From positions 1 to 36,784 of the IMG/VR virus record IMGVR_UViG_2778261535_000012: DNA of 36,784 bases. The stretch is one strand, 5' to 3'. Under the pieces are notes generated by a model. It searched no databases and was not told the DNA's origin. It worked only from the letters and a program-made list of their open reading frames with translations. Made by a program: the position numbers and the translations under genes. Source of the stretch: a virus (lineage: Duplodnaviria; Heunggongvirae; Uroviricota; Caudoviricetes). Each line of letters opens with the position of its first letter. The stretch's first letter is position 1. This document shows positions 1,100 through 10,668 of the stretch, in pieces.

Positions 1100-2035
1100 T
1101 CAGTAATTATGTACTGAAGGAGGTAATTCTTTATTCTTAAGTCTCATCCATGCGGAAAGATTCGTTGGTCCGTCTGGCTCATTGATATCAACATCTCGTG
1201 TGTGATTAATTAAAACGTCTCTCGCTATATCTATAATACGGGAGAACTCATAACCGCAGTCATGACATCTGCCGGAATAGTTCGATTGAATTTGTTTCAG
1301 CGCCGGATACAGTTCGCGGAATAATGCCTGTGAGCGGTTGGCATAATCCCATAACCATACAAGGCTGTTTGCTTCTTTTGCAGAAAGCTCGTTGGTTTTC
1401 TTCTCTTGTTTGCCAATGAACTCACCTTCAAGTGGAACTCGAGCTGCAAGTGATAGTGCTTCGGTAAACTGCTCCTCACTGATTTCTTTGTACGAACATC
1501 CAAAATGGGATTTTAGTGACGACCACATGGTGATCATCGCCTTAGCCTGTTTTTCTTTTGGTAGAGACTGACCGCGACTCATGACGAGTTGTTTAATGGC
1601 TTCCTGCTGTTCAGTGGTGATTTTACCCGGCAACGCCTTTTTAGCTTTGCGTGGGTTAACTACATGGCCTTTAGTCCAGTAGTCATGCAGCACGCTAAAG
1701 CATTCATCCTGGTACTGAATCAGTTTATCACGGATGTCAGCACGAACTTTCTCAGGGTTGATGCTGAACAGCCATCCATTTAACTTCTTCAAAGGAAGGC
1801 AGAGTAGCTTACGAAGCTTCCCATCAGCGGCAACCATGTTCATATGAACACAGTTGAATTTGCTAATCTGCTTCATGAGTTTTGTTTGCTGCGTTGACCA
1901 GCTCATTCCAAGGTTTTCAACGATTGGCTTCATCGCAACATATGCAACTCCGGCAGCCATGGCGGTGATAATTTGCTGACCGTTGAATGGTACGTAAGAG
2001 GTGTTCACTGCTTCTAAAATTGCTATACTATTCAT
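1100..2035 (-). CDS. ant: Antirepressor Ant
   Basis: Translation [22 protein letters not shown]... resembles P22 Ant; position next to arc/mnt. Start chosen at the internal Met (ATG 2035) rather than the ORF-track start at 2101. Confidence 0.75.
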
Positions 2036-2097
2036 GTTGGTTTTTCTCCACGGATTTACTGACAACCGAAGCCCTGACTGTTCCCGCAGTTGGGGCT

Positions 2098-2301
2098 TCA
2101 ACTTTCTGCTCTATCAGTTATATCTTTCCCTTCGTATACTTCACCTATATTGCTAATGCTGGCAGAACATCCAAGATGCTTGTATCTTATGATGTCCAAC
2201 ACGCAGTCACTACACAGCATCCGACCTGTTTCTTTAGAGTAAATGTATGTTTGATCAGCGTCTGATTCGCTAATGCCGCAGAAACAACATTCTTTACTCA
2301 T
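2098..2301 (-). CDS. Small Cys-rich protein (zinc-ribbon-like, CxC...CxxC), unknown function
   Basis: 67-aa ORF; its ATG overlaps the arc-like stop (ATGA), which suggests translational coupling. Cysteine pairs CCFC and CSDC. Confidence 0.5.
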
Positions 2302-7596: not shown

Positions 7597-8052
7597 CTAT
7601 CTCCCGTGATTCAGGAAGTCGATTAGTTCTTCGCGTGTAGCGCTGTAAAACGTCACGTCATCCACGCCTTTGAAGTATTTCTTGATGGTTCCTACACGCT
7701 TAAGGCCAATCATTGCGCAGTACATCTGCCCGTGGCGGAATTTGCGTGCGGCGAACGATGTGACGCACTGAACGGTGGTGTTAGTCAGAATGTATCGCCA
7801 GAACGCCAGACCGATTTCCTTGCTGAAGCCACGAACCTCTGGCAGGTACATGGCGTGGCAATCGAATGTCAGCGGCTGAATCTCCTGATAGTAAACAATG
7901 CCGCCGAACTGCCCGTGCACGTTAACCTCAAAGTAACGGCATTCAGGCTTGTAGTCGTATCCATCACCGTTGTTGCTCCCGGCGATAATGTCAGGGTGAT
8001 TTCCTACTGCTTCTATCAGGTCGATGTTTCGCGTTGGTTTGAATGTAATCAT
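7597..8052 (-). CDS. Virion assembly/ejection-associated protein (P22 gp14-like)
   Basis: 151 aa ORF between tail needle and gp7 homologs; assignment by position. Confidence 0.6.
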   Translation of the reverse strand: MITFKPTRNIDLIEAVGNHPDIIAGSNNGDGYDYKPECRYFEVNVHGQFGGIVYYQEIQPLTFDCHAMYLPEVRGFSKEIGLAFWRYILTNTTVQCVTSFAARKFRHGQMYCAMIGLKRVGTIKKYFKGVDDVTFYSATREELIDFLNHGR

Positions 8053-8753
8053 CAGTCAATCAGCCCATGTAATCTAAGTGCTGTTTCAAGCGCCAGAATA
8101 CGCTGCCGCGCCTGCTGCAAACCTGTAGCGAGAGCCGCGACTTCGGATTGTGTGTACGTAGTGCCGACCGTGTATGACTGGTTAGCGTTGAATGAGCCAA
8201 GAAGAGGTGTACCTGTGGCTGCAGTCCATCCGGTATTTCTTGCTCCAATAACCTGAATTCCATCAACTGAATATGATGTTTTTACATCCAGCGGTGACGC
8301 AAGAGACTGCGATTCTGTTACGGTTTTCGATACGTAATCACTCTTAATGCCAGAGACATCGTTTTCTACGTCATCCAGTCTTTGGTCAACAGTGACCAGA
8401 TGCGCCTGAATATCGATAACCTCATCCAGCAAGTAATCAACATCGCTACGCAGTACGACTATCTTCCCTTCGGCGGTTGTTAACCTGACCTCAAGTAGAT
8501 TTATCGCTTTTGTGTTTGCGGTGATTCTTGCATCGTGGTCAGCCAGCTCGACATCCTGTTCATCGTTTTTTACCTGGGCATCGTAAGCGCCCTGACCAGC
8601 CTGATTTGCCTTCCCAGCAATTGCACCGACATCAGCTCCCTGATTTATGACATACAGCAGGTAAGACTGGCTGAATATATTGCGTGGCAAAATTGAAGCA
8701 TCAAGGCGCGTAGCCTGAACCACGACAGGATCATTCAGTGATGAATCAGCCAT
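8052..8753 (-). CDS. Tail needle protein (P22 gp26-like)
   Basis: [25 protein letters not shown]...ALRLHGLID closely matches the P22 gp26 N- and C-terminal regions from memory; 233 aa. Confidence 0.85.
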
Positions 8754-9247
8754 TACTCGATCCTCTGCCTTGCAAACTCTCCAAAATTTTCTGCTCTTGC
8801 CATCATTGATGCTGAGATAGCTTCGTCCAGGTCATCGAAGCATCCAACGTGAACCTGTTTTTTATTTTTCTTGAAAGAAACAGTCCACTTGCAGAGATTT
8901 TTGTGCCAACAGACACCCGGATATCCTGACTTATTATTTCTTTGAATATTCCTGTTCATCCCATTCTGGGATCTATTTGCCAATCTTAAATTTGAAAATC
9001 TGTTATCCGTTCTGTCTCCGTTAATATGATCTATTAAGCAATTTGCAGGTTTTCCTGTCATATAAAACCAAGCAAGCCTATGCGCTAAGTATCTCTTACC
9101 ACAGACCATTATCCTTAAATAACCAGTGCACATGGTTCCCGCTTCATCACCAACGGTGACGCTCGCTGTATTTGATATTTTTCGGGTAAAACCCCCGGTT
9201 TCTGGGTCATATGATAAATGACGCTTCAACTCTTCATGTGAAATCAT
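8753..9247 (-). CDS. HNH homing endonuclease with AP2-like DNA-binding domain
   Basis: HNH motif ([26 protein letters not shown]) and AP2-like segment ([17 protein letters not shown]...[12 protein letters not shown]); inserted between gp10 and gp26, which are normally adjacent. Confidence 0.8.
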
Positions 9248-9249
9248 TA

Positions 9250-10668
9250 TTACTCCAGCCTAATAGAGCAACCAGACAGAGTGACAGGTGACTTAGTGAT
9301 AACGCGCAATTTGAAGCCAATGTTTTTCCTGATGCGCCCTACTTTCTTCCACAAAACGCGTTTGTCGTAAACGAACGGTTCATTCTGCTCAATCATCTGC
9401 TCACGACCGTAATTTATGCCGTCAGTGGTTGCAGAGAGGAACAGGCGGTCAGCGTACTGAGCTACGCCAGTGGATGATTCAACTTCAAGGTCGAAAACTC
9501 TGGCGTTATCCGCTTTGAACAACGGAGTAAACAGCAGGTGTTCCTGCTGCTTGTCGTACTGGCTGCTGATATCGAACTGCAGTTTCCCGGTAACAGATTC
9601 CAGCTTATCGCCGCACGTTATCTGATTGCCTTCGTAAATGAAGTCGATAGCGCGATACACATCGTCATACAGGCCTGTTTTCAGCACACACCATTGCGGA
9701 CCATTGGCGCTTGAAGATGCGTCGTACACAAGGACGTGACGCGAAAGATGGATAATCAGCAACTCATGAGCATCAAACCGCAACGATTCCATCACACCAT
9801 CAGCCAGTTCATCAGCAGTGTAGGAGCGGAGGATTTTCTCAATGCTCGCGCTGGCGATTGGTGATACCTGACCGGAGCCGATGATGTATACAGACGGAGC
9901 ACCTGTTGCCGGATTGCTGATAAACGCATAGGAATCAGCAAACGGCGTTTTGCAGTAAGTTCCGGCAATGCCTTTCTGCACCATCAGTGATGGCTGTGCG
10001 ACATACAAAGCGGCACCAACGGTGGTTGCCCCAGTCAGGGAAAAATATTCAATCGTCGATGAACCAAAGCAGACGATGAAGTCTCGCCATGTTCCGATGC
10101 CGAGGATACCGTCCGGCTGCGATTCTGCGCGATATTGTGCGCTGTAACGGTCAGGATGCGATTCGTCTTCAAGGTCAGTGATAAACCATGAATCCGTGCC
10201 GTCTTTTGACCACGCATAACGCCCACGTAAGCGCGTAATGTCACGGACTGATCCTAATTCATACTGCGTGAATCCGCTGTCTGTAGGCCAGTTTGAGACG
10301 GTTTTAACCGTACCATCATAGCGATACTCGACCAGTTGACCATTAACGCCTACAGCCTGAGATGTCCGACCATGCGCCATTGATACGCGACCACTTCCGG
10401 CAACGTCACCGACCTCGCTTTCGCCCTTATACAACTTGCCACCACACACGCGATACACAGCATTCTGCGCCATGTTGTACTCGACGCCGCGCGATACACC
10501 GTTCACATCAGAACGTTTGGCAATGCCCGGGAATGAGCGAAGATATCCGCTGCTGTTGAGGATTTCTTTGGGTGTAGCCAACATATTCACTGGCAGATAG
10601 TCGATATAGTCGGCGTTTCTAAAGTCTTTGCCGACACCTTTCATAAGCGGAAGTTGCTGAATAGGCAT
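9250..10668 (-). CDS. Tail hub/accessory protein (P22 gp10-like)
   Basis: 472 aa, same size as P22 gp10; synteny between gp4 and tail needle. Confidence 0.7.
   Translation of the reverse strand: MPIQQLPLMKGVGKDFRNADYIDYLPVNMLATPKEILNSSGYLRSFPGIAKRSDVNGVSRGVEYNMAQNAVYRVCGGKLYKGESEVGDVAGSGRVSMAHGRTSQAVGVNGQLVEYRYDGTVKTVSNWPTDSGFTQYELGSVRDITRLRGRYAWSKDGTDSWFITDLEDESHPDRYSAQYRAESQPDGILGIGTWRDFIVCFGSSTIEYFSLTGATTVGAALYVAQPSLMVQKGIAGTYCKTPFADSYAFISNPATGAPSVYIIGSGQVSPIASASIEKILRSYTADELADGVMESLRFDAHELLIIHLSRHVLVYDASSSANGPQWCVLKTGLYDDVYRAIDFIYEGNQITCGDKLESVTGKLQFDISSQYDKQQEHLLFTPLFKADNARVFDLEVESSTGVAQYADRLFLSATTDGINYGREQMIEQNEPFVYDKRVLWKKVGRIRKNIGFKLRVITKSPVTLSGCSIRLE

Follow-up and report, generated by a model that had tools for sequence, protein, structure and literature searches.

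We describe an open reading frame (ORF) of 164 amino acids (AA) on the minus strand (8753..9247) of the virus record IMGVR_UViG_2778261535_000012 (Caudoviricetes), the whole 36,784-nucleotide stretch of which was analysed and is referred to here as the window. The ORF very probably represents a free-standing HNH(HNN)-AP2 homing endonuclease gene lodged in the late operon of a P22-like phage or prophage, and from sequence comparisons and structure modelling we infer that its product cleaves and homes. It starts with ATG, matches the HNH endonucleases of phrog_99 (E 1.6e-69) and lies between gp10, the head closure or DNA stabilisation protein (472 AA; 9250..10668, minus strand), which precedes it in the direction of transcription, and the tail needle gene gp26 (8052..8753, minus strand), which follows it. 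Over its full length gp10 matches Pfam Phage_stabilise (E 2.4e-299), with a further match to phrog_578, and corresponds to P22 gp10, while gp26 matches phrog_1219 (E 1.4e-113). A preliminary description of this DNA had already recognized both neighbours and had proposed a selfish, free-standing homing endonuclease inserted exactly between them, with start and stop codons overlapping those on either side. The neighbours and the general interpretation hold. The insertion is not placed between two intact genes, however, as the element replaces the last codons of gp10, and of the two overlaps only one exists: the HNH stop codon and the gp26 ATG share one base (TAATG), whereas two bases (TA, 9248-9249) separate the gp10 stop from the HNH start.

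The exchange is fixed by a near-isogenic pair of loci, L007 (filled) and L155 (empty), in which 506 nt stand in the place of 9 nt; upstream the two agree over 800 nt save for 18 nt beside the insert, and downstream they agree over the first 77 nt. With this comparison, which the preliminary description had suggested, the empty site is defined. In the window the inferred mobile unit spans 8765..9270 (506 nt, minus strand) and would have replaced the 9 nt GCT/TGC CAG ATA, which lengthens the locus by 497 nt. In empty alleles gp10 closes with GCT/TGC CAG ATA AGG ATY GAG TAA (A/C-QIRIE and stop), the TAA overlapping the ATG of gp26. In filled alleles a rewritten gp10 end, TGC TCT ATT AGG CTG GAG TAA (CSIRLE and stop; 9250..9270, minus strand), identical in 16 of 16 filled loci, is followed by TA and the HNH start, and the HNH ORF ends with CAG AGG ATY GAG TAA, again overlapping the gp26 ATG. 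Alignment of filled and empty alleles identifies the original gp10 terminus, AGG ATC GAG TAA (RIE and stop; 8753..8764, minus strand), as the last codons of the HNH ORF, and the ATT/ATC polymorphism seen there is the one seen at empty sites. The duplication is marked by a 13-nt imperfect direct repeat recovered by a repeat search, with the right copy, ATTACTCGATCCT, at 8752..8764 and the left copy, ATTACTCCAGCCT, at 9249..9261 (both given on the plus strand), and with a spacing of 497 nt that equals the net insertion length. Precise removal of the unit would restore the direct gp10-gp26 junction ...CAGATAAGGATTGAGTAATGG....

A rewritten gp10 end directly abutting gp26 was found neither in IMG/VR nor in any of 5426 complete E. 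coli genomes. Because the CSIRLE-type end never occurs in direct contact with gp26, it belongs to the mobile unit and did not exist beforehand as a variant of gp10. The rewritten codons CTG GAG also create a GGAG motif (9253..9256, minus strand) 5 nt upstream of the HNH ATG, a putative Shine-Dalgarno sequence for the HNH ORF. At the other end, the old gp10 terminus that now closes the HNH ORF would keep an AGGA ribosome site and the TAATG coupling for gp26. The xRIE tail is confined to homologs located at the gp10/gp26 site, more distant homologs stopping just past a conserved GEFAR. The cost to the phage is small, given a near-identical gp10 C-terminus and a gp26 ribosome site and stop-start coupling that are both kept.

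Copies of the element are far more alike than the DNA around them, and their distribution is incongruent with the relationships of the flanks. Among 14 intact copies of the 515-nt unit, pairs differ by 0.19% in the median and by no more than 0.58% (three differences or fewer), whereas the 500-nt flanks on each side of the same copies diverge by a median of 7.4%. The boundaries are abrupt: in most of the 91 pairs the first mismatch is met at a distance of 3-6 nt from the left end of the unit and 4-5 nt from its right end. When either flank (gp10 or gp26) is compared with those of 174 empty loci, the carriers do not group together but are polyphyletic; most of them have empty alleles as their closest neighbours in gp10 and in gp26, and at least eight flank backgrounds hold the same unit at approximately 0.2% divergence. 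Since the copies are near-identical, the flanks diverged and the carriers polyphyletic, the unit has recently spread horizontally into several backgrounds, with very sharp ends. The window fits into this pattern: with the HNH gene removed, its flanks are 95.0-95.9% identical to empty E. coli genomes, which is no worse than the match to the best filled genome. A near-isogenic empty partner for the window was not present among the complete E. coli genomes, where the best flank match reached 95.9%.

Among close relatives, presence or absence of the gene varies at one precise site. The insert was found in a single one of 127 phage records matching the gp10-gp26 region, Escherichia phage vB_EcoP-683R2, and at least 14 phages, HK620, CUS-3 and IME10 among them, lack exactly 497 nt when aligned across the junction. 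A gp10 homolog is carried by 923 of the 5426 complete E. coli genomes and the HNH gene (at ≥99.4% identity) by 16, while among IMG/VR contigs 10 have the filled junction and at least 120 the canonical empty one. Overall, more than 98% of related phages and prophages are without the gene. Direct adjacency of gp10 and gp26 in the great majority of relatives is what the preliminary description had stated, and the counts (1 of 127 phage records, 16 of 923 E. coli genomes) dispose of the idea, which it had raised as a counter-possibility, that the ORF is a conserved virion gene of all P22-like phages. In every filled locus examined the HNH gene is flanked by gp10 on one side and the needle gene on the other, although the carriers differ in needle type (702-nt vs 954-nt 'knob') and in their gp4 and capsid alleles.

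Recent spread in E. coli is only part of the history. Homologs 78% and 74% identical to the window protein (P0003 and P0004) occupy the same position, flanked by gp10 and the needle gene, in P22-like contigs from metagenomes, where gp10 is 71% and the needle 46% identical to those of the window. Their layout is alike: gp10 ends in CS(I/V)R(V/L)E and stop, a two-base spacer follows, and the HNH ORF ends in KRIE and stop, overlapping the needle start. Because versions of this divergence occupy the same site in distant P22-like contigs, the association with the gp10/gp26 site is old and the E. coli spread recent, so that the earlier statement that the element had invaded the operon calls for some care. 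A dN/dS of 0.08 between the window protein and a 78%-identical relative indicates that long-term purifying selection acts on the HNH-AP2 protein and maintains its function.

The protein has the domains expected of the HNH-AP2 (HNN-AP2) homing endonuclease family, for which Magnani et al. (2004) is reportedly the source. The HNH_3 catalytic core covers residues 53-97 (8957..9091, minus strand; Pfam E 4.4e-16, 58.7 bits, cutoff 24.8), and when solved structures are searched with phmmer, I-HmuI (1U3E) aligns with residues 49-99, which places D73, H74, N86 and N95 on I-HmuI D74, H75, N87 and N96. Across 24 aligned homologs the residues D73, H74 and N86 do not vary, and N95 is almost constant. Loss of the catalytic HNH residues, which the preliminary description had named as grounds for abandoning its proposal, was consequently not observed. 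Foldseek against the PDB likewise returned I-HmuI 1U3E (probability 1.0 over 104 columns). The AP2-type DNA-binding domain at residues 107-153 (8789..8929, minus strand) was found by Pfam (E 9.2e-5), and a sequence search of the PDB aligns residues 106-127 to the Plasmodium AP2 domain 3IGM (E 0.004). An AlphaFold model built on the 24-homolog alignment (mean pLDDT 87) predicts strands at 112-115, 120-127 and 130-137 and a helix at 140-158, together making up an AP2 fold (residues 112-158); the last four residues of the protein are disordered (pLDDT 46). In Foldseek the AP2 region matches the AP2 domains of TEM1 and AtERF1 (probability 1.0, rmsd 1.1-1.5 Å over 48 residues), the E-values being modest, which is to be expected when a single domain is matched. 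For many relatives a PF00847 hit had already been precomputed. The 164-AA ORF with an AP2-type domain that the preliminary description had read from the sequence is thus confirmed.

The wider family is large and mostly phage-borne, with more than 3491 homologs; 975 phage records match at E ≤ 1e-20, many of them annotated as homing endonucleases, and RefSeq already labels the protein 'HNH endonuclease' (WP_021529423.1). Labels in individual phage records differ from this. The identical gene in vB_EcoP-683R2 (ON470594.1, L001:2202-2696) is mislabelled 'endolysin', the homolog P0085 of Salmonella phage S4lw (45% identical) carries the label 'putative class I holin', and the STP03 homolog 'endolysin'. 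The endolysin identity given in ON470594 found no support in any domain search. Correction of the misleading labels 'endolysin' in vB_EcoP-683R2 and 'class I holin' in the S4lw homolog is a gain for annotation.

The gene is free-standing and lies neither in an intron nor in an intein: gp10 has its own stop and the HNH ORF its own start, and with an Rfam search of the window returning no intron match, a group I intron or intein was ruled out. A role as a component of anti-phage defence was also rejected, since the protein fits no known defence model and its neighbours are virion genes; PADLOC gave only a weak generic 'homing endonuclease' match (24 bits) and NCBIfam nothing. GC content is 0.38-0.41 within the HNH ORF versus approximately 0.50 on both flanks, a further sign of mobility. 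A consensus scan for a promoter or terminator belonging to the insert gave no more sites than shuffled sequence, and expression is therefore taken to come from the late transcript.

Where the enzyme might act is suggested by the empty alleles. All 119 of 119 empty sites share 21 nt, CAGATAAGGAT[T/C]GAGTAATGG, while the bases immediately outside vary; these sites were picked via an anchor upstream of the junction from a pool that included loci from earlier junction-pattern scans, and the ratio of filled to empty sites in that pool is not a frequency estimate. In carriers the block is split and altered on both sides: the left junction copy has 6 of 15 bases changed and a different sequence thereafter, and the sequence upstream of the right junction copy differs from three bases before AGG. 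We consider the invariant junction a putative recognition site and its rewriting a putative means of self-immunity. As a separate observation, the 21 nt at the gp10 stop and gp26 start (window 8735-8775; all empty loci, e.g. L155) are invariant even at synonymous positions. This probably reflects constraint from the gp26 ribosome site and the stop-start coupling, and such constraint may be a reason why endonuclease genes target the gp10/gp26 junction.

We propose the following course of events. The protein would be a late product, translated from the late-operon transcript by means of the GGAG in the rewritten gp10 end. When a carrier meets a non-carrier relative, by co-infection or in a lysogen, the enzyme would bind the invariant junction CAGATAAGGATYGAGTAATGG of the empty allele through its AP2 domain and its I-HmuI-like N-terminal part, and would nick or cut nearby. 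Phage recombination, for which the window encodes a RecT-like gene (30492..31394), could then repair the break from the gene-carrying genome and copy the unit in, whereas the carrier genome itself would be immune since its junction is split and rewritten. The similarity to I-HmuI suggests that the enzyme may nick its target rather than cut both strands.

Several observations weigh against this proposal or at least temper it. A co-conversion gradient in the flanks was looked for and none was seen, identity ending within 3-6 nt of the unit, and the converted tracts are shorter than usual for homing by break repair. Such near-absence of co-conversion could result from later recombination with the abundant empty alleles, or from another insertion route. 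The target site is a candidate deduced only from conservation and linkage. The element is rare, present in approximately 1.7% of gp10-bearing E. coli genomes, and at least 2 of 16 filled-locus copies are disrupted, one by IS2 (L004) and one at IMG/VR locus L024. Among complete E. coli genomes, IS2 interrupts the HNH ORF after approximately 108 nt in three (L004:4399-5627 in E. coli FDAARGOS_1280; also H58 and H59). Given this rarity and these disruptions, drive is weak or opportunities are few. At the protein level, the Pfam AP2 score of 23.1 bits falls below the gathering cutoff of 33.3, and the copy in the window carries a private T-to-G change in codon 19 (9191-9193), V19G, absent from the other 13 intact copies, which adjoins an invariant glycine in the conserved YDPETGxF motif and might weaken the enzyme.

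The lack of a co-conversion gradient and the low frequency of the gene are also what passive cargo would show, that is, a 'moron' without drive that is spread by ordinary homologous recombination of a mosaic tail module. P22-like genomes are indeed highly mosaic, and gp26, gp4 and capsid alleles vary among the carriers. Spread of this kind should, however, drag the flanks along, yet identity collapses within 3-6 nt on both sides while the same 0.2%-divergent unit sits in at least eight flank backgrounds; the rewriting of a conserved junction within the unit would have no obvious purpose, and the nuclease site is intact in a protein under purifying selection. On balance we regard passive cargo as unlikely. 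Decay, by contrast, would predict that the element once homed and is now inherited only vertically, as the IS2-disrupted copies in three complete genomes, the disrupted IMG/VR copy and the V19G change in the window might suggest. With 14 of 16 copies intact, differing at three or fewer of 515 nt and lying in polyphyletic flanks, recent spread is indicated instead, and together with a dN/dS of 0.08 over the longer term this makes an inactive relic extremely improbable.

The late-operon position and the strong purifying selection could alternatively point to a nuclease that the phage has domesticated for its own benefit, whether to help in packaging or as a weapon excluding competing P22-like genomes. 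HNH proteins adjoin the terminase genes of HK97-like cos phages, where they (HK97 gp74 and its like) are needed for packaging. In the window the gene is several genes distant from the terminase genes, and more than 98% of relatives manage without it, so that assembly and packaging do not need it; a packaging HNH of the HK97 gp74 type was rejected on these grounds of position and dispensability. As for the weapon, cleavage of the conserved junction would be damaging to a competing genome, and the 'marker exclusion' of the T4 seg genes, as cited in PMC10448857, overlaps with such a role. Exclusion is nevertheless no real rival in mechanism, being the same cut-and-repair viewed from the fitness of the phage. 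Taken as a whole, domestication strikes us as very unlikely, and a homing endonuclease remains the reading that we favour.

Comparison with known systems places the element in familiar company and also sets it apart. I-HmuI of Bacillus phage SPO1 is a site-specific nickase that cuts intron-less alleles, and the window protein resembles it in the N-terminal region and HNH core, in sequence and in fold, including the catalytic D/H/N/N. I-HmuI is encoded within a group I intron and has a C-terminal helix-turn-helix, whereas the window gene is free-standing, carries an AP2 domain and has no detected intron. The seg and mob genes of phage T4 (SegG, SegF, MobE) are intron-less and optional, lie between or at the ends of conserved genes, spread by cutting alleles that lack them and cause marker exclusion. 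Seg enzymes are of the GIY-YIG type and cut at a distance with long co-conversion tracts, in contrast to the HNH-AP2 type and almost absent co-conversion seen here. A similar design is found in free-standing endonuclease genes of mitochondria, such as that of Allomyces atp6, which insert at the 3' end of a host gene together with a replacement C-terminus. They share with the window element a new in-frame end for the invaded gene and an old end displaced downstream, although their enzymes are GIY-YIG or LAGLIDADG proteins of other hosts and not an HNH-AP2 protein of a phage. In the window the displaced end is put to use again: it closes the endonuclease ORF and supplies the coupling signal for gp26.

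Within its own family, the element is best compared with the free-standing HNN-AP2 endonucleases of the Xanthomonas oryzae phages Xp10, OP1 and Xop411 (PMC2248197), and proteins combining HNH and AP2 have been regarded as a family of homing endonucleases present in phages, cyanobacteria and protists (PMC10448857). The Xanthomonas phage proteins have, like that of the window, an N-terminal HNN-type HNH core and a C-terminal AP2 domain, are free-standing and scattered in phages, and have the boxes HRLAW, DH, DNR, NLR and xN in common with it. With the exception of 683R2, deposited phage homologs are less than 48% identical to the window gene. The window element carries a rewritten host-gene end; apparently none is described for the Xanthomonas and HNH+AP2 systems in the two sources (PMC2248197, PMC10448857). 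Our literature search found no paper on this insertion, although an earlier mention in comparisons of P22-like virion modules is possible. The element is of the expected kind, and it is the location in a P22-like tail operon that is new for the HNH-AP2 family.

The gp10/gp26 junction has a second occupant. In E. coli K56-43-un (NZ_CP053079.1, L011:627-1160) a NUMOD4-HNH gene of 177 AA with a GC content of 0.35 lies at the same junction, and this gene is found in 36 of the 5426 complete E. coli genomes. It shares with the window gene only the HNH core (35% over 46 AA) and has NUMOD4 and a helix-turn-helix-like C-terminus in place of AP2. Like the window gene it combines low GC with the same junction and the same orientation, overlaps the needle start (by 8 nt) and is accompanied by a changed gp10 3' end. 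That end is AT-rich, diverges over more than 300 nt and terminates in ...LSIRVT and stop, compared with the 18 nt rewritten in the window. A second endonuclease gene at this place fits with a conserved junction that is repeatedly targeted. Tentatively, then, the gp10/gp26 junction could be contested by at least two HNH elements unrelated in specificity, each with a 'portable immunity' in the form of a rewritten gp10 end that doubles as ribosome-binding site; we would not yet put our weight on this proposal.

A third HNH gene (194 AA, with a NUMOD4-like N-terminus) was observed at the boundary of gp4 and gp10 in Salmonella phage UPF_BP1 (L003:4568-5152) and in K56-43-un (L011:2548-3132). In the latter its annotated span overlaps the start of gp10, a 93-nt fragment of which is left upstream as a pseudogene. 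Because this fragment remains upstream of the third HNH gene, insertion at the 5' end of gp10 may have followed a similar 'duplicate the gene end' pattern. The ends of the gp10 gene appear to be repeatedly used landing sites.

The remainder of the window is typical of P22-like phages. The gene following gp26 is gp14 (7597..8052), and ejection proteins, capsid, portal, terminase and a Q-like antiterminator are present along with replication genes, a repressor, the RecT-like protein, Ant and sar RNA. The sar antisense RNA (Rfam RF00262, 95.6 bits; 2036-2103, plus strand), the only match in the Rfam search, overlaps the start of the Ant anti-repressor gene (1100..2101, minus strand), which is the known immI arrangement of P22.

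Phage genomes commonly contain homing endonuclease genes, yet few of these outside T4 have a defined target, mobile unit and immunity mechanism. For the HNH-AP2 gene described here, sequence comparison by itself yields the exact swap, a candidate 21-nt target, a rewritten copy that is putatively uncuttable and a near-isogenic pair of loci, and with all of these defined a clean experimental test would be cheap.

Apart from its place within the family, the element illustrates one way for a selfish gene to settle among tightly coupled structural genes while leaving their operon unbroken: the gene upstream is given a replacement end, from which the unit would also obtain its own ribosome site, and the gene downstream inherits the old stop-start overlap. 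If the gp10/gp26 junction is indeed contested by elements of different specificity, its three ready-made alleles (empty, AP2-filled and NUMOD4-filled) would lend themselves to the dissection of recognition, self-immunity and competition, and the 'bring your own C-terminus' design of mitochondrial endonuclease genes would extend to phages.

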